DNA of 64,000 nucleotides from an uncultured bacterium (GTDB lineage Bacteria; Patescibacteriota; Microgenomatia; Levybacterales; UBA12049). Below the pieces are notes generated by a model that was not told the DNA's origin, did not search any database, and worked only from the letters and a program-made list of their open reading frames with translations. Below are positions 9,781 through 28,346 of this stretch, one piece after another. The stretch is from the NCBI GenBank assembly GCA_963826535.1, contig CAWGXL010000011.1, positions 803,521-867,520 on the forward strand. Reading direction: 5' to 3'. The translations under genes were made by a program, and so were the position numbers. Each line of letters starts with the position of its first letter. Position 1 is the stretch's first letter.

Positions 9781-10611
9781 ATGAGCAAACAGTGGTTGGT
9801 GGGGGTTGTGATAATTATTATAGTTGTCGGTGTGGGGTATGTTCTGCTTCAAAATCAATCCAGTACTGTAGATCAGCCAAAAGAGACTGCTGATCCTCAA
9901 GTTACAAATGCGGCTGCGCTGGATGAGGGTGGAGATATTGCAGTGACTACGGAAGATGTGGGGTATTTTGAAAACAGCAAAGGGTTTTATGCTAGGCCGA
10001 CGGAAGAGGGAGATTATCCGGGTGTGGTCATGATTCATGAAAATCGTGGGTTGAGGCCGGAAATCAAGCAAACCGCCGAGCAGCTTGCGCGACAGGGTTA
10101 TTTGGTGCTGGCGGTAGATCTTTATAAAGGAAAAGTTGCGGAAGAACAGACTGAAGCCAGGGCGTTAACAACTAATTTTAAGCAGGAAACTGGAGTTGAG
10201 AATATGCGTGCCGCAGCAGCATATTTGCGCGCGCAGGGAGCTGATAAGTTAGCTTCCCTTGGATGGTGTTTTGGCGGAAGACAGTCTGTAGAGCTTGCAA
10301 TTTCGGGGGAACCACTTGATGCGACTGTGGTGTATTATGGTGGTAATATGGCGACGACTACAGACAGATTAGCTCCTATAAAGTGGCCAGTCCTTGGTAT
10401 TTTCGGTGATCAGGATCAGGCTATCCCGGTTACTACTGTGCGCGAGTTTGAGTCATCGCTCAACACACTTGGCGTTGAAAACGAAATTTATATATACCCT
10501 GGTGTGGGGCATGCGTTTGCGAATCCGTCGGGGCAAAATTATGCGCCGGCGGAAACAAAAGATGCATGGGGTAAAACCATCACATTTCTAGAAAAGCATT
10601 TGAAGAGTTAA
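9781..10611 (+). CDS. Dienelactone hydrolase family protein
   Basis: N-terminal TM anchor then DLH fold (PGVVMIHENRGL...GYLVLAVDLY...GWCFGGRQS...GVGHAF). Confidence 0.7.
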   Translation: MSKQWLVGVVIIIIVVGVGYVLLQNQSSTVDQPKETADPQVTNAAALDEGGDIAVTTEDVGYFENSKGFYARPTEEGDYPGVVMIHENRGLRPEIKQTAEQLARQGYLVLAVDLYKGKVAEEQTEARALTTNFKQETGVENMRAAAAYLRAQGADKLASLGWCFGGRQSVELAISGEPLDATVVYYGGNMATTTDRLAPIKWPVLGIFGDQDQAIPVTTVREFESSLNTLGVENEIYIYPGVGHAFANPSGQNYAPAETKDAWGKTITFLEKHLKS

Positions 10612-16307: not shown

Positions 16308-16934
16308 ATGTACAATTCATCCACAAGACCTAAAAGCGCAACTTCATATAAGGAAACAGTATTTGGTATTATTCCACGATCAAAATTGCTAATACTTGAA
16401 ATTGAGGGAACGAAAAAAGGGCTTGAATATATAGGTGAATTGGTTAAAGAAGATAAAAATACTCCGATTACACCTGAACTGATTTGTAAATTGCATAATG
16501 TTTCCTTTGGTTGGATTTTTCCCGATTGGGCAGGGCAGTATAGGAAAATACAAGTTACATTTTCTGATAAAGAAGCTCCGCAATATTTTCAAGTATCTGA
16601 GCTTGTGACAAATCTGTGCGCAGACATAGCGGAGCGAATAAAACATTTGCCTGCTAAAGAAAAAGAGGAATATATTATTGATGTTGTTATGCTGCTTGCA
16701 TGGTTTCAGCATCGGTTTGTATTCATTCATCCATTTCAGGACTATAACGGACGAACGGCCCGGATGTTGACTATTCATATTTTGTTAAAACTCAATTTGC
16801 CGCCAATCGAGCTAAAAGCTGAAACTGAGGCAGACAGAGAACAATATCTTACTGCAATGCAAAAAGCTGATAAAGGGGATTTTGCTCTTTTAGAACAGTT
16901 GATAAGTACTGCACTTTCGGAGGCTTTGCAATAA
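16308..16934 (+). CDS. Fic family protein (AMPylation / filamentation induced by cAMP)
   Basis: Canonical Fic motif HPFQDYNGRTARML (HPFx[DE]GNGRxxR). Confidence 0.8.
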   Translation: MYNSSTRPKSATSYKETVFGIIPRSKLLILEIEGTKKGLEYIGELVKEDKNTPITPELICKLHNVSFGWIFPDWAGQYRKIQVTFSDKEAPQYFQVSELVTNLCADIAERIKHLPAKEKEEYIIDVVMLLAWFQHRFVFIHPFQDYNGRTARMLTIHILLKLNLPPIELKAETEADREQYLTAMQKADKGDFALLEQLISTALSEALQ

Positions 16935-20933: not shown

Positions 20934-21101
20934 TTTGATATAATTTCTTCATGAATTTGAGTGTTGGGGAATTCAGGTTATTTATCCAATTTTACAAGTT
21001 AGATTCAAATTAAAGGAAAATACAACTTATCGATAGCAGCATTTTTATATGGCTAAGATAAATAAAAACTATATAAAAAGTATAGAGGAGAATTTAAAAA
21101 T

Positions 21102-22406
21102 ATGAAATCTACTGTAAGCCATATGATTGAAATATTGCCTGATGAAAAAATTTCAGTTTTTAAATCAATTGCTGAAAAATTCGGAACACCGCTGTATGTT
21201 TATTTTGAAGATGAACTTATCAAAAAATTAGAGATATTTAAAGCCATTCCGGCTCCGTATGGTTTGATTGTGCGATACGCTATCAAAGCAAATTCGACAG
21301 CCGCGATAATAAGTTTGTTTGAAAAACAGGGAGCGCATTTTGATGCGAGTACTTTTAACGAATGTAGTCGTTTGATAAAAGGTGCGGGAATAACCGGTGC
21401 AAAAATTCGCTTAACCAGTCAGGAAGTACAGTCACCAGAACAGCTTAAATTTATCGCAAAAAATGGAATTCTCTACACAGCCTGTTCACCACTGCAGCTT
21501 GAGACATACGGAAAAGTAATGCCAAATACAGTGGTAGGCGTACGGTTCAATATCGGCATCGGATCGGGTCACATTCCACAAGTGTCAACAGGGGGAACTA
21601 ATTCATCATTTGGTATTTATCAGCAAAGAGATGAGATTGATGAGCTGCTTAAAAAATATAAACTAACAATCACTACTGCACATTTTCATATCGGTTCAGG
21701 GAGTGATCCTGAGAAACAGAAAATAGCAATTGAGTTGGGATTAAAAATTGTAAAAAACTATCCAACAGTTGACACCATTAATATGGGTGGTGGATTTAGA
21801 GTTGCGATAATGAATTATGAGAAAGCGACTGACGTTGAGGAGGTCGGGGAGAAAATGTGTAGTTCGCTTTCAAATTTTGAAAAAGAAACGGGAAGAAAAA
21901 TCAAGCTTGAAGTCGAGCCGGGGAAAGCTCTTGTGATGAACCCAGGATATATTGTTACAACTGTTGTAGATAAAGTTAGTACAGGGCCTAAAGGAGAAGA
22001 ATTTCTTAAAGTAAATGGAGGGATGAATATGAACGCGCGAATTCCAATGCATGGAGCTGCGCATCCGTTTGTTGTTATTCCAAAAAAAGATAATAAAAAT
22101 GTGCGAAAATATGTAGTAAACGGTATATGTTGTGAAAGCTCTGATATTTTGACAATACGTCCGCGGGAGACGGAAATTATTGAGCCTAGGGCAATGAAGG
22201 AAGCTGAGGTCGGGGATTTATTTATTGTTGGAGGGGCAGGTGGATATTGCTCTTCTATGGCTCCCGTAAATTACAATTCCCAGCAAATTCATCCGGAAAT
22301 TCTGGTAAGAAGTAATGGTAAACTTGATCTTATCAGGAGAAGACAACCCATTGCAGATATTTGGAAATATGAAAGAGTTCCGGAAGATCTTAAATTAAAT
22401 TTATGA
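21102..22406 (+). CDS. PLP-dependent Orn/DAP/Arg decarboxylase family protein (diaminopimelate decarboxylase-like)
   Basis: 434 aa; TPLYVYFEDELIKKL, RYAIKAN (PLP Lys), fold-type III decarboxylase length and order. Confidence 0.65.
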   Translation: MKSTVSHMIEILPDEKISVFKSIAEKFGTPLYVYFEDELIKKLEIFKAIPAPYGLIVRYAIKANSTAAIISLFEKQGAHFDASTFNECSRLIKGAGITGAKIRLTSQEVQSPEQLKFIAKNGILYTACSPLQLETYGKVMPNTVVGVRFNIGIGSGHIPQVSTGGTNSSFGIYQQRDEIDELLKKYKLTITTAHFHIGSGSDPEKQKIAIELGLKIVKNYPTVDTINMGGGFRVAIMNYEKATDVEEVGEKMCSSLSNFEKETGRKIKLEVEPGKALVMNPGYIVTTVVDKVSTGPKGEEFLKVNGGMNMNARIPMHGAAHPFVVIPKKDNKNVRKYVVNGICCESSDILTIRPRETEIIEPRAMKEAEVGDLFIVGGAGGYCSSMAPVNYNSQQIHPEILVRSNGKLDLIRRRQPIADIWKYERVPEDLKLNL

Positions 22407-22966
22407 AAAATGCATTTATTATTCATGGAGCATATGGAAATCCGGAAGAAAACTGGATTACGTGGCTAAAGCAGGAACTGGAAAATATTGGTATCGCAAC
22501 AATTGTCCCCAAATTTCCAACTCCCGAAGGGCAGAATCTTGAAAACTGGATGAAGGCTTTTGAACCTTTCAAAAAACAATTAAACCATGAGTCCATTATC
22601 ATAGGACATAGTATTGGAGTAGCATTTATCTTGAGAGTTTTGGAGAGTATCGACGTTAAAATTAAGGCAGCATTTTTAGTTGCGGGGTTTTTAAAGGGAA
22701 TAGGGGATGCGGAATTGGATGCTATGAACGAAACTTTTTACGGAAAACCTTTTGATTGGAAAAAAATCAGGAAAAATTGTCGAGAGTTTGTGTGCTACAG
22801 TTCGGATAATGATCCTTTTGTACCGCTGTGGCAGGGGCAGGAAGTGGCGGACGGGGTGGGAGTAGAAATATCACTGGTTAAAGGCGCGGGACATTTTAAT
22901 ACGAAAGCAGGATATACGAAGTTTCCGCTTTTGCTTGAGAGAATAAGGTCATTATGGAAGGAATAG
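22403..22966 (+). CDS. YdeN/RBBP9-like alpha/beta serine hydrolase
   Basis: 187 aa; FIIHGAYGNPEENW...IGHSIG (nucleophile elbow) ...GAGHFN. Confidence 0.55.
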   Translation: MKNAFIIHGAYGNPEENWITWLKQELENIGIATIVPKFPTPEGQNLENWMKAFEPFKKQLNHESIIIGHSIGVAFILRVLESIDVKIKAAFLVAGFLKGIGDAELDAMNETFYGKPFDWKKIRKNCREFVCYSSDNDPFVPLWQGQEVADGVGVEISLVKGAGHFNTKAGYTKFPLLLERIRSLWKE

Positions 22967-23021
22967 TAGGATGTGAGTCTTTTTGTTGTACTTACACCAG
23001 ATAAATTGTAGACTATACTAT

Positions 23022-23342
23022 ATGTCCCTTGGAGTCGTGGCTTCAAAGAATAAAGTCCCTATTCGTTTAACCGAAGAACGGTGGATTCATATAACTACAG
23101 CTCATCCGGAAATCGATCCTTCTGAGTCAACTTTTGCATTAGATATTGTTAAAAGTCCGGAGGCGGTTTTAGCAGGTGATAGAGATGAATTACTTGCCGT
23201 TAAGAAGAAGAATAGAAAGAAAGTATGGTTTGTGGTAGTATATAAGGAGATTAATAGTAAAGATGGGTTTATTTTGACAGCTTATTTAACTACTGATGAG
23301 AGGTGGTTGTTTAAGAGAAAGGTTGTATGGAGCAGAACATAA
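23022..23342 (+). CDS. Putative toxin-like small protein (DUF4258-like), upstream partner of DUF2283
   Basis: 107 aa from internal ATG; IRLTEERWIHITTAHPEI resembles the 20509 DUF4258 protein; overlaps next gene by 16 nt. Confidence 0.3.
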   Translation: MSLGVVASKNKVPIRLTEERWIHITTAHPEIDPSESTFALDIVKSPEAVLAGDRDELLAVKKKNRKKVWFVVVYKEINSKDGFILTAYLTTDERWLFKRKVVWSRT

Positions 23343-23569
23343 TTAAATCAACTACTGGCGTGATAAGTAATATTCTGGGTTTGGCGAAACTTGGGGATTC
23401 TAAGTTGTGGATTGATTATGATAAAGATGCGGATGTTTTGTATGTAAGTTTTGGTAAACCTCAAAAGGCTGATGATTCTATTCAAGGTGAGGATGGAATT
23501 GTCCGCAGGAAAAAGAAGAATAAGTTGATTGGTTTAACTTTCCTCAACGCAAGTAGGTTTGCAAAGTAA
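23327..23569 (+). CDS. DUF2283 domain protein (second copy)
   Basis: 80 aa; KLWIDYDKDADVLYVSFGKP...IGLTFLNAS. Confidence 0.5.
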   Translation: MEQNIIKSTTGVISNILGLAKLGDSKLWIDYDKDADVLYVSFGKPQKADDSIQGEDGIVRRKKKNKLIGLTFLNASRFAK

Positions 23570-23628
23570 TATGTATTAGTACTTTTTAGTTTTGTTTTTT
23601 TCACCCTTTTGGTATAATTAGCTCAACT

Positions 23629-23916
23629 ATGTTTAATAAAGAAAGCAAGAAGAATTGTCCGTATTGCGATTATGAAGATTCAGTAAAAAATTTTATGACT
23701 TGGGAAAACGATAACGAGAGAGGCGCGCTTGGTAAGACTCCAGATGGCTTCATAATGATTCTTTGTCCAAAATGCAAAAATCATATCAAATATGATACTT
23801 TGGGAAATTCTTTTTTGAAAAAAAATCAAAGAGCAAATAGTACTCTTGTATTCAATTCAATTTTCGTATTAGTAATATTGCTCGTACTTTATTTTCTAAT
23901 AAAAGTATTTTTTTAA
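23629..23916 (+). CDS. Zinc-ribbon membrane-anchored hypothetical protein
   Basis: CPYC...CPKC zinc ribbon plus C-terminal TM helix (VFNSIFVLVILLVLYFLIKVFF). Confidence 0.4.
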   Translation: MFNKESKKNCPYCDYEDSVKNFMTWENDNERGALGKTPDGFIMILCPKCKNHIKYDTLGNSFLKKNQRANSTLVFNSIFVLVILLVLYFLIKVFF

Positions 23917-23989
23917 ATATAATATTATTTTTCGGGTGGGATAGGTTGCCATTTCATTTTATTTCGTACTATTCCTAAATCTGATATAA

Positions 23990-24220
23990 TTGCACGAAAT
24001 GAAAAGTAATAAACTCATCCGTTGCCCAGCAGGACTTAGATTTCTTTATGGGGCGCTAATAACTTTTATTGAAGAGAAAAATATATTACGGAAAAATATT
24101 GCCGATTACCCTGAAAGACAATCTTCGAAATACAATAAAGTTACTATTGAAAAGCTTGATAGGGTAATCAAAAAGACAGAAATTTTAATAAAAGAAACTG
24201 AAAAAGATTTGAAAACGTAG
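23990..24220 (+). CDS. Hypothetical small protein
   Basis: 76 aa ORF; no homology recognised. Confidence 0.25.
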   Translation: MHEMKSNKLIRCPAGLRFLYGALITFIEEKNILRKNIADYPERQSSKYNKVTIEKLDRVIKKTEILIKETEKDLKT

Positions 24221-24249
24221 CTCTGTTCATTTCTTGGTAAAATCACATC

Positions 24250-24336
24250 TATGAATCTATCTGTGGGAATTGTTGGGTTGCCGAATGTTGGGAAGTCGAC
24301 TTTGTTTAATGCTATTGAAGAAGTAGGCGGGACTTG
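24250..24336 (+). pseudogene. Displaced/decayed copy of the ychF 5' end (first 28 codons, then stop)
   Basis: atgaatctatctgtgggaattgttgggttgccgaatgttgggaagtcgactttgtttaatgc encodes [21 protein letters not shown], identical in protein to the ychF N-terminus at 27117. About 75% nt identity with mostly synonymous changes; has its own TAAAAT -10 box 8 nt upstream. Confidence 0.65.
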
Positions 24337-24388
24337 ACAGGATAGCTAATAAGTTATAACATTGTTATAATATAATTTTGGAGGTGAT

Positions 24389-24628
24389 ATGCAGCAGAAG
24401 GTAATACAAATAGGGAATTCGTCAGGAATCACCTTACCGCGATCTATAAGACAGAATGCGGGATTGAAACCTGGAGATAAAGTCGAGGTCAATACAAAGG
24501 GCTCGGATATTATTATTTCTCCTGTTAAGAAGGTAAAAGTGGCGGGTGTAAACGCGAAATTTGTGAAAATGGTTGATGAGTTTATTAATGAACATGAAGA
24601 TGTACTCCGGGAACTCGCCAATAGATGA
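24389..24628 (+). CDS. AbrB/MazE/SpoVT-family antitoxin
   Basis: VIQIGNSSGITLPRSIRQNAGLKPGDKVEV swapped-hairpin motif; GGAGG RBS; overlaps the Doc gene by 4 nt (ATGA). Confidence 0.7.
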   Translation: MQQKVIQIGNSSGITLPRSIRQNAGLKPGDKVEVNTKGSDIIISPVKKVKVAGVNAKFVKMVDEFINEHEDVLRELANR

Positions 24629-25008
24629 AATACCTTACTCCTCAGCGTGTATTGGCGATTCATGATCAATTAATCAAGAGATTCGGAGGGTCATTTGGGT
24701 TGCGAGATTTGGGTCTGCTTGAGTCTGCGGTTGCAAGACCGAGGGCAAGTTATGGAGGGGAAGATCTCTACCGGACAATTTTTGATAAAGCCGCTGCTCT
24801 TCTTCATTCGCTTTTAAAAAATCATATGTTCGTAGATGGGAATAAGCGGACAGCTCTTGCTTCAGCGGGTGTATTTTTGAAATTGAATGGATACAAGCTT
24901 ATAAATAAACATAATGAAGAGTTGGAATTTGCACTTAAAGTGGAAAGTGAAAGTTTGTCTTTGGAGGAAATTGCGGAGTGGCTTGAGAAGAATAGTACTG
25001 AGGTTTGA
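24625..25008 (+). CDS. Doc (death-on-curing) / Fic-fold toxin
   Basis: Doc motif HMFVDGNKRTALASAGVFL (HxFx[DN]GNKR). Confidence 0.75.
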   Translation: MKYLTPQRVLAIHDQLIKRFGGSFGLRDLGLLESAVARPRASYGGEDLYRTIFDKAAALLHSLLKNHMFVDGNKRTALASAGVFLKLNGYKLINKHNEELEFALKVESESLSLEEIAEWLEKNSTEV

Positions 25009-25154
25009 AGCTGGGGGTTTAATGAGGTAGTATGCGTTGCGGCCAGTCCTACTGTCATCACCCAAGTCAAAAGACTAATTTAATCCTCAAATTAATCTTT
25101 TAATACACTTTGCCACTTGACAGCTTCATATACATGTGATATAAAAAGATTATC

Positions 25155-25994
25155 ATGATTAATGAATCCGTACAGTCAGATAAAAAGGAAACTCAAAGCG
25201 TAACTAATGCCTCATCACCTCAGAAAAGAAAGCGGGGAGCATTTCCTCGACTATCTCTTAAAAAGAGTTTGGAACTTTCTAAGGCTATATATAAGCTTGG
25301 ACAAGGTGAGCCAATTAGAAGGTTAAACATTTTTGATAGTTTAGGAAAATCGGCAGAAAGTGGTTCAAGCAGGAGTTTAGTCACTAATTCAAGCGCTTAT
25401 GGTTTAACAAAAGGAGGCTATCAAGCTGATTATTTGGAGCTGACAGAAAAAGGGAAAATGCTAATTTCTATCAATGAAGAAAGGAAGAAATATGAAGTCG
25501 CATACGATATTTTATTTGCCAATGATCTTTTTTCAGGTTTTATTGAATATTGGAAAAATAAACAGCTTCCGTCAGATGAAATAGCTCCAGATTGGTTTGT
25601 GAGAAATTTTCAACTTACAGCCTCAGATGCAAAAGCAGCTTGGGATGTAATAAAAGAGAATATAGACGATTGGAAGCTTACAGAATTGCTTTCGGGTAAA
25701 CAGGTAATTCTTTCTAAAGATATTGCTTCAGAGAGCTTGAAGAAAATATTTGGAAATTTACATGAAGCAGAAATACTTGAGGCAACCAGAGGTATCTCTG
25801 AGACGCTTACAAAAGTAGAAGAGAAAGAACCATCTCTGGTGCAGTCTAATACTATTGAACAAGGGTTAGCTGGATTTGAGAGAAAATATACATATGGCAC
25901 AGCCCGTATGATTTTTCCTGCAAAAATGAAACAAACAGAATTGGATAAGATGAAAATGGCAATTGATGGACTAGTAGAAGTTGTAGAACCATAA
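25155..25994 (+). CDS. Hypothetical protein (orphan) inside island block
   Basis: 279 aa ORF in an AT-rich region; preceded by TTGACA-17nt-TATAAA promoter at about 25108-25140; no recognised domain. Confidence 0.5.
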   Translation: MINESVQSDKKETQSVTNASSPQKRKRGAFPRLSLKKSLELSKAIYKLGQGEPIRRLNIFDSLGKSAESGSSRSLVTNSSAYGLTKGGYQADYLELTEKGKMLISINEERKKYEVAYDILFANDLFSGFIEYWKNKQLPSDEIAPDWFVRNFQLTASDAKAAWDVIKENIDDWKLTELLSGKQVILSKDIASESLKKIFGNLHEAEILEATRGISETLTKVEEKEPSLVQSNTIEQGLAGFERKYTYGTARMIFPAKMKQTELDKMKMAIDGLVEVVEP

Positions 25995-26001
25995 TTAATT
26001 G

Positions 26002-26122
26002 GGGAGCGTATCCAACGAGGCCGAAGGTAAGTAGTGTCCAAAGCTACTACGTCGATGCGATATATTTTGATATCAATATGCTCTGAGGCGTTCCGTCACA
26101 GGTTCGAATCCTGTCCTCCCCA
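26002..26122 (+). ncRNA. tRNA-like element (canonical T-arm + acceptor 3' strand; aberrant or fragmentary body)
   Basis: 3' end acaggTTCGAATcctgt-cctcccc-a gives a perfect T-stem/T-loop and an acceptor strand pairing with 5' ggggagc (1 mismatch). The intervening about 85 nt cannot be folded into D/anticodon arms by eye. Followed by a terminator. Confidence 0.35.
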
Positions 26123-26195
26123 GTGCTAAATCTATTAATAGTTGAAATTTTAGCTTCAATTTGCTATTATGATTGTGATATCAAAATGTACTAGC

Positions 26196-26218
26196 AAACA
26201 ACCTCCTTCTGGAGGTTT
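26196..26218 (+). terminator. Rho-independent terminator
   Basis: cctcc-ttct-ggagg followed by tttttt. Confidence 0.5.
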
Positions 26219-26246
26219 TTTGTGGGTAAAATTGCTATAATCCTAT

Positions 26247-26297
26247 TTATGAACTTATCGGTGGGGATTGTGGGATTGCCGAATGCGTGGGGGAGTT
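26247..26297 (+). pseudogene. Second decayed copy of the ychF 5' end (13 codons, then stop)
   Basis: atgaacttatcggtggggattgtgggattgccgaatgcg encodes [13 protein letters not shown]; own TATAAT box (gctataat) 8 nt upstream. Confidence 0.55.
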
Positions 26298-26356
26298 GAC
26301 TTTCTCTTATAAGATTATTACATGATATTGGAAATGTTCTATGGTATACTACAACT

Positions 26357-26821
26357 ATGGATAAGGTATCAATTTCTGTTCGAAAACTTAGAAGTAATCT
26401 TGAGAAAATTTTAGGCCTTAAAATTTCTATAGCTTGGAAAGGTTTTGGTTCTGCACTTTTTCTAGAATTGGGGAATCTTCATGAAGAATTAGCATGGGAA
26501 AAAGGAGGGAAAATTACTACTGCTAAAGTGGGCGAATGGACTTTATCAAGTGCTGGCGCCTGGAAATTACTTAGAAATGGAAGGATGTTGCTAGATGCTG
26601 AAAAAGCAAAAGAGTCTCAAATTGAAAAAGTGATTAAAGGTTTTGAAAATCTTACTATAAAGTCAGTAGATATCAGTGATAAGCTAGTATTGCGTTTATT
26701 AAATAATGAGATTATTGAGTTTAATAAAGCAGAATATGGGTTTTTCAATTTGTTATTAAATGAAAAGACGAATATAGGTTATGAGAATGATAAGCCGTAT
26801 ATTCAGCAGTTAAGTCTATAA
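26357..26821 (+). CDS. Hypothetical protein
   Basis: 154 aa ORF between the second ychF-fragment copy and ychF; no homology recognised. Confidence 0.4.
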   Translation: MDKVSISVRKLRSNLEKILGLKISIAWKGFGSALFLELGNLHEELAWEKGGKITTAKVGEWTLSSAGAWKLLRNGRMLLDAEKAKESQIEKVIKGFENLTIKSVDISDKLVLRLLNNEIIEFNKAEYGFFNLLLNEKTNIGYENDKPYIQQLSL

Positions 26822-26828
26822 ATAATAT

Positions 26829-27035
26829 TTATCTTCTTTTCGTTTTTTTAACGTCACCAGCTACTTCTAAAAATTCATTACCCTTTTCTAAAAGTTCCCG
26901 GAAAGAAAAGCTATTTGATTCCTTTTGGTAATATTTTCCAAGGTATCGATGGAATTTGTTCTTTTGACTTAGATCGGTAATGCCTAGCTTTTTGCAAATA
27001 CTCTCAAAATCTTTATTTTTATCTCTATTTGTCAT
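26829..27035 (-). CDS. Hypothetical small basic protein
   Basis: 68 aa; convergent with 26357 gene. Confidence 0.35.
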   Translation of the reverse strand: MTNRDKNKDFESICKKLGITDLSQKNKFHRYLGKYYQKESNSFSFRELLEKGNEFLEVAGDVKKTKRR

Positions 27036-27116
27036 AGTGAAACATTTTTAATTTGTCCTCATTATATCAAAGTTTTTTTATTTCGTTTCTTTTTGTAACT
27101 TGGTATAATCAGATGT

Positions 27117-28346
27117 ATGAATCTTTCTGTTGGGATAGTCGGATTACCAAACGTAGGAAAATCTACTTTGTTTAATGCGCTTTTGAAGAAGCAGCAGGCG
27201 TTGGCGGCGAATTATCCGTTTGCTACTATTGAGCCGAATGTGGGTGTGGTGGCGGTGGCGGATTCGCGGTTGGAGAGGTTGGCGGAGATTGTGGCAGAGG
27301 AGATGCGGGGTCCTGTCGCTCCCTCGTCCCGTCCGATGTCCTCGGTCGCAGGCTCCCTGCGGGCACTCGACGGGACACCCTCCGGTCGCGCCACCCCTTC
27401 TTTACCTCCGATAAAGCCGGCGATGATTTCTTTTGTGGATATTGCGGGGCTTGTGAAGGGGGCTTCGGAGGGGGCGGGGTTGGGGAATAAGTTTTTGTCG
27501 CATATTCGGGAGGTTAGGATTATTGCGCATGTTGTGCGGGCTTTTTCAGACGCGGATGTGGTGCGGGAGGGGAGTGTGGATCCTCAGAATGATTATATAA
27601 CTATAGGGACAGAGTTGATTCTTGCGGATTTGCAGACGGTTGAGAAGCAGCGGAAGAGTAAGGCGGTGAAGACTGATGTGGTGAAGAAGTTGGCGATTGA
27701 GAAATTGTATAAGGCATTAAATCAGGGAAATGCTGCGAGGGAAGTTGTATTGACAGATGAAGAAAAAGAATCAATTAGTGATTTATTTTTGTTATCAGGT
27801 AAGGCGGAAGTTATTGTTCTTAATGTTTCGGAGCAGGATTATACAAAAGATAAAATTCCTGAGATTATAAAAAAATATTCTGAATATTTTCAAGGTGGTA
27901 GTTCGTCGACCTCACCCCAACACTCTCCTAATAGGAGAGGGAGTAATTCTATGATTGTCATATGCGCGAAAATTGAGTCGGAACTTTCGGAGTTGTCGGA
28001 GGAGGAACAGAAGGAATATTTAAAAGGATTGGGTCTCACGCAATCGGGATTGGAGCGATTGATTCAAAAGGCTTATGAAACTTTGGGACTTATATCTTTT
28101 TTGACAGCGGGGGAGAAAGAGGTGAGAGCTTGGACTATAAGAAAAGGTATAAGCGCGCAAATGGCGGCGGGGGAGATTCATACGGATTTTATTAAGAAGT
28201 TTATTAAGGCGGAAGTTGTGGGATATGATGACTTTGTTGAAGTAGGCGGGTGGAAGAAGGCAAGGGAGCAAGGGAGGGCGAGGCAAGAGGGAAGGGATTA
28301 TTTGATGAAGGACGGGGATGTAGTGGAGTTTAAAATAGGAACTTAG
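27117..28346 (+). CDS. ychF: Ribosome-binding ATPase YchF (Obg-like GTPase family) with in-frame insertions
   Basis: G1 [18 protein letters not shown]3 [28 protein letters not shown]-terminal TGS domain. 409 aa versus about 363 typical: extra GC-rich segment 27307-27398 and palindromic segment around 27923-27939. Confidence 0.85.
27307..27398. repeat. GC-rich RPE-like element inserted in-frame within ychF
   Basis: Near-identical to 4461-4535 (2 mismatches over about 75 bp). Encodes [34 protein letters not shown] between conserved YchF segments EEMRG and [11 protein letters not shown]; no stop codons. Confidence 0.6.

Follow-up and report, generated by a model that had tools for sequence, protein, structure and literature searches.

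Relic gene starts and stacked, integrase-less cargo blocks at a probable integration hot spot upstream of ychF in a Levybacterales genome

Directly upstream of ychF in an uncultured bacterium of the Levybacterales (Patescibacteriota, Microgenomatia) lies an array of three blocks of cargo genes and three relic copies of the ychF 5' end, all laid out on the plus strand. The array is part of a 64-kb stretch of contig CAWGXL010000011.1 (assembly GCA_963826535.1, positions 803,521 to 867,520), referred to here as the window, and coordinates are those of the window. From sequence comparison with relatives we consider it likely that the start of ychF is a hot spot at which foreign blocks have stacked, and that the outermost relic, C, is the attL remnant of an element moved by a large serine recombinase (LSR); the mechanism behind the two inner relics, A and B, is weighed separately. 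The array is made up as follows.

20936-20968, plus strand: relic C, with an extended -10 box (TGATATAAT, 20936-20944), a 6-nt spacer, and an ATG with 6 ychF codons (MNLSVG)
20969-21010, plus strand: element left-end arm (P' arm) after relic C (GAATTCAGGTTATTTATCCAATTTTACAAGTTAGATTCAAAT), which holds a CCAAT/CCCAAC motif
21011-24221, plus strand: cargo block 1 (Pfam)
24222-24337, plus strand: relic A, with promoter TGGTAAAAT (24235-24243), ATG at 24251 and stop codon at 24335-24337
24338-26213, plus strand: cargo block 2
26214-26303, plus strand: relic B, with promoter TGCTATAAT (26233-26241) and ATG at 26249
26304-27064, no single strand: cargo block 3
27065-28346, plus strand: functional ychF with its leaderless promoter (TGGTATAAT, 27101-27109) and ATG at 27117

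Relatives were represented by 168 ychF loci (L numbers below), 160 of them from GTDB genomes and Joint Genome Institute (JGI) metagenomes and 8 added by protein look-ups. They belong to the Levyibacteriota and other Microgenomates; the nearest, L001, has 77% YchF identity.

A preliminary description of the window had recognized two extra copies of the ychF start and a third, more decayed candidate; all three hold, A and B far beyond chance in pattern search and simulations. A degenerate pattern for the first 12 ychF codons matched only at 24251, 26249 and 27117 in 64 kb, with 0 matches expected. Copy A, which starts at 24251 and not at 24250 as first given, is a 28-codon open reading frame (ORF) ending at 24337. 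Its codons 1-21 are protein-identical to ychF, and the predicted synonymous divergence was borne out by the count: 49/63 nt are identical, with 14 synonymous and 0 nonsynonymous differences. Gapped homology of A to ychF extends from -30 to about +86 (about codon 29), frameshifted past codon 21, and an identical 14-mer, ACTTTGTTTAATGC, is present in A and in the functional gene where their homology changes character. Copy B starts at 26249, rather than 26247; its codons 1-12 are likewise protein-identical to ychF, and all 10 nt differences are synonymous. Past codon 12, a 1-nt indel is followed by decayed homology to codon 18, and the end of the relic at 26303 is set by homology to L164 that starts at 26304. 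The promoter of B is homologous to sequence past the terminator of a cassette in L038, described below.

When substitutions were placed at random, none of 200,000 simulations for either copy was all-synonymous (chance <5e-6 for A and for B), and the differences of both include Leu and Ser codon-family switches. Over codons 6-21, A is 94% identical to L012 and 90% identical to L010 and L027, as against 75% to the resident gene; the clade median for these codons is 75-77%, like A versus the resident. The flanks of the relics are not duplicated. Because the differences are synonymous only and the divergence is at the level of orders, A and B in all likelihood derive from foreign ychF alleles that were once functional, and did not arise by local duplication. 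Every copy has TGnTAWAAT, a spacer and an ATG, the usual leaderless ychF architecture of the clade; the promoter box previously noted on each copy is there, but its spacer is 6-7 nt and not 8. A scan for consensus sigma-70 promoters was set aside, its count being not above that of shuffles; the relevant promoters are extended -10 boxes without a -35 element.

Copy C, with its ATG at 20951, matches ychF at 14/18 nt over 6 codons, which is weak taken alone; what validates it is its downstream flank, homologous to element left ends in L009 and L094. The P' arm at 20969-21010 aligns with the arms of L009, L094, L048, L134, L138, L060 and L164, and the flank as a whole was aligned with P' arms of 14 loci. 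Because this flank continues into a conserved element left-end arm, we read C as an attL relic, in which a B arm would be joined to the P' arm of the element. Among the three relics this reading applies to C alone: no conserved element arm is recognisable after A or B.

The surroundings of ychF in relatives agree with the proposal that its start is an integration hot spot. Downstream of ychF, synteny (rpsF, ssb, rpsR and beyond) was found in about 60 of 80 loci; upstream it was found in none, and no upstream gene was common to more than 15 of 144. A Fic gene, the orthologue of that at 16308-16934 in the window, adjoins ychF in L001, and the window is about 10 kb longer between the two. Relics were sought with a query of -10 box, ATG and MNLSVG-like peptide in the 110 loci with at least 1 kb of upstream sequence; 17 loci had them, all upstream and on the ychF strand. 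None turned up on the opposite strand or in 832 kb downstream, and shuffles gave about 0.05 each. In the short relics, GTNGGRA is followed by a conserved arm that ends CCCAAC(Y)TTT.

The integrase that is missing from the window is present in relatives, as an LSR whose gene ends at the ychF ATG. LSR genes (Pfam domains Resolvase, Recombinase and Zn_ribbon_recom) lie directly upstream of ychF in L004/L082, L057 and L166, their ORFs reaching or overlapping the ychF ATG; that of L057 was recovered with motif regular expressions used to seek rare integrases in upstream ORFs of the relatives. C-terminal LSR remnants stand before ychF at 9 further loci (L007, L030, L046, L058, L087, L094, L101, L137 and L159), and at least 12 relatives have an LSR gene or remnant ending at the ychF start codon. 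The LSR elements also carry AAA_25 and HTH_17/excisionase-like genes. Positions 1-10059 of L166 hold an element of at least 10 kb, with an intact 544-aa serine recombinase overlapping the ychF start and, as cargo, the genes of a complete type I restriction-modification system together with those for an HNH endonuclease and an HTH_17 (excisionase-like) protein; its left end falls outside the flank retrieved. In L163, L167 and L168, ychF is preceded by a recombinase-type leader (GGAGGTTGGGT / GGAAAAGTTGGGAT) but by no recombinase.

The ychF start itself appears to travel with these elements. L030, L057, L101 and L127 share the start ATGRRCCTGAGCGTAGG after ARRTTGGGRT, and other recombinase-linked loci have close variants; because the start is shared in this way, the ychF ATG and about 5 codons are evidently element-borne at recombinase-linked loci. 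Both ends of an element can be seen in L058, with a relic at 751 and a recombinase remnant beside ychF at 9998. In L094, the recombinase-side arm runs straight through the ATG and 5 codons into the other arm, the whole forming a palindrome (inverted-repeat arms) centred on nt +16 of the ORF; it lies beside the recombinase remnant, and a further 1.4-kb unit and then ychF follow. This arrangement indicates a tandem junction and gives a direct view of the stacking that the preliminary description had proposed. No attL of the L004, L057, L030 and L166 elements was found within their 10-kb flanks, and a search of viral contigs for free attP gave no match to the ychF 5' pattern or to the pattern of recombinase-side arm plus ATG.

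Occupied and empty sites could be compared in several pairs of relatives. L107, with 99% YchF identity to L048, is an empty site, and L048 is its occupied counterpart, with a junction resolved to the base: the L048 relic and 80 nt upstream are identical to L107 at 103/104 nt up to codon 8, after which come the P' arm and an insert of 1851 bp. Against L117 (92%), the relic of L060 retains the native MSLSVG, and the working gene begins MNISCG. L062 differs from L068 (81%) by a 152-nt insert at codon 13/14, which brings in a hairpin and a Shine-Dalgarno site as well as an ATG with 13 codons. The relic promoter of L009, ctgctataattagcttc, is the functional ychF promoter in L006, L011, L016 and L040. 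Because L009, L048/L107, L060/L117 and L062/L068 keep the native end on the relic side, an element-borne 5' end can be seen to displace the resident one in relatives. The earlier idea that the element carries its own replacement ychF start is thereby upheld for these loci; A and B had no recombinase linked to them in any genome.

Two kinds of structure do not fit simple LSR integration. First, in L048 and L164 the native promoter and first codons are present as a perfect direct repeat on either side of integrase-less cargo units, the repeat being 40 bp long in L048 (8134-8173 and 9985-10024) and at least 28 bp in L164 (1-28 and 3160-3187). In effect, an attL is accompanied by an intact attB, a structure that canonical attP x attB serine recombination does not yield; repair by recombination with conspecific DNA carrying the empty site is a possibility. 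Second, there are long relics: A and B of the window, L050, L054, L062, L139 and a frameshifted one in L108. All end within the first 30 codons, but A, B, L050 and a hairpin class (L054, L062, L139) end at codons 13-29 and not at codon 6, and in no case was a recombinase found nearby (Pfam, motif regular expressions). Within the window, only C fits the recombinase-linked crossover at codon 6; A and B end at codons 18-29. In the hairpin class, an imperfect hairpin of 75-80 nt (GGTCCCAGTA...TACGGGACTSGMCAG) occupies L054 3436-3515, L062 9889-9968 and L139 7051-7125, at codon 13/14 of the ychF relic, and is followed by a Shine-Dalgarno site and the new ychF start. When read from the old leaderless start, the ORF finishes with ATGA or TAAnATG where the new start lies, an arrangement that suggests translational coupling.

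The functional ychF of the window (27117-28346) encodes 409 aa with MMR_HSR1 and YchF-GTPase_C domains (Pfam). Its probable attB lies around codons 1-14, with putative motifs GTTGGG at codons 5-6, CCAAAC at codons 11-12 and GTAGGA at codons 13-14; other ychF alleles have CCCAAC at codons 11-12 and GTTGGG at codons 13-14. Its promoter and 5' end (27065-27143) have their orthologue in the native relic displaced in L001 (76% over 79 nt, E 4e-9), and over codons 7-21 the functional gene matches L001 at 36/45 nt, whereas copy A matches L001 at only 31/45. The functional 5' end thus looks lineage-native and not plainly element-borne, or derived from a related donor. The promoter type of the lineage is tttatttcgttt, and all three relic promoters differ from it. 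In a sliding-window comparison, the nearest neighbours of the first 45 codons were L008 and L010, not L001, suggesting that ychF may be a mosaic in its nearest neighbour along its length, a pattern confounded by composition. G+C content at third codon positions (GC3) steps from 0.25 to 0.70 at codon 20/21, the largest step among 136 genes; it was downgraded as a crossover footprint, since L001 has it as well and AT-rich 5' ends are a general feature. Mosaic GC3 and nearest neighbours together point only weakly to a non-site-specific origin of A and B.

Several further features of this gene were recorded. Its composition is odd (GC3 0.49 and third-position G 0.43, compared with about 0.3 and 0.2 in neighbour genes), with GC3 of 0.25 in codons 1-20, about 0.65 in codons 21-200 and about 0.2 in codons 201-260. 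Two in-frame insertions interrupt it, at 27303-27410 and 27897-27953; the first is G+C-rich, has an inverted repeat (GTCCCGTC...GACGGGAC) and is common to L001 and L046, and other relatives have different inserts at the same two loops. Codons 25-27 (27189-27197) read AAG CAG CAG, retained in 72-88% of 129 ychF genes in which G-ending Lys and Gln codons elsewhere reach only 30-40%; this would reflect a nucleotide-level constraint, near the end points of the long relics.

We propose the following course of events. Positions 20936-27116 would be a decayed, integrase-less stack of three foreign cargo blocks before ychF; at the left edge of each block would stand what remains of the promoter and first codons of a ychF allele, a different one each time. 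In elements of the clade, as relatives show, the LSR gene ends at the ychF ATG and the recombinase-side arm contains a 5' leader, the ATG and about 5 ychF codons; the crossover would lie near nt +16, in codon 6. Integration would give ychF a new start and strand the resident promoter and 6-8 codons on the far side of the element, where they are joined to its other arm; elements would later lose their recombinase, and further units would stack at the site. Relic C would be such an attL. A and B may record two later events, the first bringing in block 2 and the second block 3; each would have supplied a new promoter and 5' end and cut off the previous 5' end, at about codon 29 (A) and codon 18 (B). 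The relic promoters, active-looking and leaderless, probably transcribe into the cargo behind them.

For A and B, we slightly favour integrase-independent, homology-facilitated illegitimate recombination, in which one crossover would have its anchor in the highly conserved 5' region of ychF and the join at the other side would form illegitimately, possibly after DNA uptake, over a second, unseen site-specific integrase. We lean this way because the end points vary, the recombinase is missing, and the border of block 3 is internal in L164.

Several observations weigh against the proposed course of events. Seven long relics that all end by codon 30 look more site-specific than random illegitimate joining predicts, and the 14-mer ACTTTGTTTAATGC sits as a crossover core would. 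Homologous recombination between short segments of about 75-90% identity is inefficient. If the 5' end of ychF always comes from the last element, a native-looking functional 5' end requires a relative as donor. The window lacks the recombinase-side arm (GARAARGTTGGGRTATGA), and tblastn with the L004 and L057 LSRs found no LSR remnant in it. Finally, the best relative of the window in both contig collections and a search of 5.8 billion proteins has only 77% YchF identity; the contig index held no exact record of its ychF or of the 279-aa protein of block 2.

A possible alternative, which we think rather unlikely, is that all three relics are attL sites of classical site-specific elements, each bringing its own promoter and 5' codons just as the preliminary description had it, with a second integrase acting in trans or since deleted and a core around codons 17-21 (ACTTTGTTTAATGC) or at the CCCAAC/GTTGGG palindrome of codons 11-14 (CCCAAC followed by GTTGGG). 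It would account for the recurrence of long relics within the first 30 codons in five lineages, for the identical 14-mer shared by A and the functional gene at the boundary, and for the L062 insert, with its new Shine-Dalgarno site, ATG and 13 codons; it has a precedent at codon 6 of ychF itself, and it agrees with published models of accretion and of decayed, cis-mobilizable elements (CIMEs) (PMC5704250). However, no recombinase of any kind was found beside any long relic, the end points differ (codons 13-14, 18 and 21-29), and the relics A, B and L050 have no conserved element arm behind them. Nor is the left end of block 3 an element end in L164, where position 26304 corresponds to an internal point of a larger unit and no ychF relic above shuffle level lies to its left.

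Improbable, in our judgement, is that a composite island accreted in other genomes and reached its place upstream of a native, unaltered ychF in one piece, either through transformation or as a composite element. In that case the relics would have come along as passengers and would be silent on events at the ychF of this genome. The orthology of the functional promoter and 5' end with the native relic of L001, and the closer match to L001 of codons 7-21 of the functional gene than of A, would fit this reading, as would the three relic promoters, which differ from the type of the lineage, and composite transfer of accreted elements is documented in other systems (PMC5704250). Yet block 3, promoter and ychF are contiguous in three lineages, such that at least the last junction is no passenger; the blocks have so far been found only singly in other genomes; and an insertion beside ychF would still be needed, the mechanism being relocated and not replaced.

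More speculatively, and quite improbably, the ychF start in Microgenomates might be not a simple prophage site but a platform for the accretion of cassettes, that is, of integrase-less units of one to five genes with their own promoters. Insertion would then duplicate or retain the whole landing site, from the promoter to about nt +42, as in the repeats of L048 and L164, and A and B, which keep the whole predicted landing site, might be landing pads kept in reserve or the outcome of an insertion reaction not yet described. If true, this would be integron-like gene capture by way of a serine recombinase or a recombinase-free mechanism. An integron proper was rejected: there was no tyrosine recombinase motif or Pfam match, the blocks have their own promoters, and repeated attC-like hairpins were not present. 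Readings as IS200/IS605-type or tyrosine-integrase elements were dropped, for want of any defining feature. That the promoter and 5' end of ychF were duplicated locally in tandem and then decayed, or that the copies are selected upstream ORFs or decoy promoters, is very improbable: relics do keep intact extended -10 boxes and ATGs, and the hairpin-class upstream ORF does end at the real ATG as if translationally coupled, but the 14 and 10 differences are all synonymous, with codon-family switches and order-level divergence, the flanks are single, and the reading frame is shifted after codon 21 in A and codon 12 in B.

The stacked blocks carry the following genes and features.

21102-22406, plus strand: PLP-dependent decarboxylase of Orn/DAP/Arg type (Pfam), block 1
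22403-22966, plus strand: alpha/beta hydrolase of the Ser_hydrolase family (Pfam), block 1
23022-23342, plus strand: first member of a small gene pair, no Pfam match, block 1
23327-23569, plus strand: second member of the pair, DUF2283 (Pfam), block 1
23629-23916 and 23999-24220, plus strand: two small orphan ORFs, block 1
24389-24628, plus strand: MazE/AbrB-type antitoxin, block 2
24625-25008, plus strand: Doc/Fic toxin, block 2
25155-25994, plus strand: 279-aa tandem winged-helix protein, block 2
26002-26125, plus strand: tRNA-like RNA, block 2
26200-26217, plus strand: terminator-like hairpin and T run, block 2
26357-26821, plus strand: 154-aa orphan, block 3
26829-27035, minus strand: 68-aa orphan, block 3

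The preliminary description had found no integrase in the blocks, and we agree: Pfam gave no recombinase among the block proteins, and crude regular expressions for tyrosine and serine recombinase motifs had no match over 64 kb. Its suggestion that the proteins at 25155-25994 and 26357-26821 might be recombinases was not supported; neither the 279-aa nor the 154-aa protein matched one in Pfam, NCBIfam or PADLOC, and the orphans of block 3 belong to no family in these databases. Profiles from the PDB gave nothing relevant for the 279-aa protein. Its AlphaFold2 model, with a predicted local distance difference test score >90 over residues 30-200, had weak winged-helix matches to the recognition domains of FokI and BspD6I and to BusR (E >0.01), and a recombinase fold was rejected on the profile search and the model comparison.

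What had been taken for a tRNA-like 3' fragment turned out to be a full-length tRNA-like RNA (26002-26125), conserved directly past the 279-aa gene in three genomes (also L038 9367-9487 and L161 6854-6980). It has an acceptor stem of 6-7 bp, an anticodon-like stem-loop in which UCCA is invariant (CCA 'anticodon'), a GGTTCGAATCC T arm, an AT-rich insert of about 50 nt where the variable arm would be, and an aberrant D region; six of its base pairs covary. By test it is not a tRNA gene: ARAGORN found 0 tRNA genes in the whole 64-kb window, and no Rfam family reached its gathering score there, tRNA-Sec giving the RNA 17 bits against a gathering score of 47.

Cargo modules of the window recur upstream of ychF in L008, L038, L162, L164 and a JGI contig. 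In L008, the pair at 23022 and 23327 is found about 1 kb before ychF. L038 (here too before ychF) and L161 each have the 279-aa gene, tRNA-like RNA and terminator as a cassette, and in L162 and L163 the 279-aa family is paired with an NYN RNase instead of the RNA. The gene pair of block 3 stands directly upstream of ychF in L164 and in the JGI contig, and in L164 it lies within the unit flanked by the attL relic and the promoter repeat. A small conserved hairpin (GGGAGGCG...GTTTCTCCC) separates the NYN gene from ychF in L162 (3934-3990) and L163 (4465-4520). In L050, the motif TAACCYCGGCAAAAATCCCC occurs at 620-645, 1118-1140 and 1622-1645, each time just ahead of the promoter of one of three small genes upstream of ychF, and may mark a cassette boundary or serve as an operator.

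These observations bear on the mobile elements of the candidate phyla radiation (CPR), which are poorly charted: they point to a widespread integration site, a family of serine recombinases and predicted attachment sites, with relics in about 15% of related genomes. The ychF attachment sites could become a genetic tool for CPR organisms, which currently have none. The variable region before ychF stores toxin-antitoxin pairs, restriction-modification systems and orphan genes in tiny genomes. The relics, being short ORFs with strong promoters, should not be annotated as genes, and a second insertion mechanism may lie behind the longer ones and behind the perfect repeats that flank integrase-less units.

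Among known systems, the comparison drawn at the outset was with islands at the 3' ends of tRNA and tmRNA genes. The analogy is a fair one, in that the element makes the gene whole again and leaves a displaced gene-end fragment at its far border, but homology-facilitated replacement explains A and B at least as well; moreover, here the 5' end of a protein-coding gene is involved, a promoter and start codon are supplied, and the divergence is synonymous and not structural. Homology-facilitated illegitimate recombination occurs during natural transformation in Acinetobacter and Streptococcus. It likewise combines one conserved anchor with one illegitimate join, and would explain the variable ends and the absent integrase; alone, however, it would not predict that all relics measure at most 30 codons, and we know of no documented case in CPR bacteria.

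The integrative and conjugative elements (ICEs) of the SXT/R391 family are said, after work by Hochhut and Waldor in 1999, to integrate at the 5' end of prfC and to supply a new promoter and 5' coding sequence. SXT is conjugative, uses a tyrosine recombinase with a 17-bp core, and forms tandem arrays at its site. The 5' end of a gene for a translational P-loop GTPase/ATPase, the new promoter and 5' end, and the tandem arrays are all shared with the elements described here, which differ in having a serine recombinase and no transfer genes that could be seen.

In the CIME model, elements of the ICESt1 type decay to integrase-less units that accrete at one att site (PMC5704250). The window is alike in its stacked integrase-less blocks, with att-derived repeats of the target-gene end between them and the oldest relic farthest from the gene. 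It is unlike in that CIMEs keep matched attL and attR of one recombinase, whereas here only C has a recognisable arm, and A and B have different end points and may not be att sites.

Closest in target are elements already reported at ychF. Pipolins that encode an LSR use ychF as a target (PMC11551731), and the Streptococcus pneumoniae prophage PPH005 has its int gene beside ychF, with an intergenic attB between a DUF951 gene and ychF; a defective pneumococcal prophage is reported to control ychF expression (PMC8637289). Both have the same target gene as the elements of this clade, and a recombinase gene immediately beside it. Their hosts are Actinobacteria and Firmicutes, whereas ours is a CPR lineage and the copy in the window is without a recombinase; in contrast to the intergenic attB of PPH005, the crossover here would fall inside the ORF, at about codon 6, with the element arm encoding the start codon. 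A literature search found no paper that links Patescibacteria with such ychF elements. Set beside these systems, the array represents a known process, LSR integration at ychF followed by accretion, in a new lineage, with a fringe of long relics, perfect repeats and hairpin inserts.

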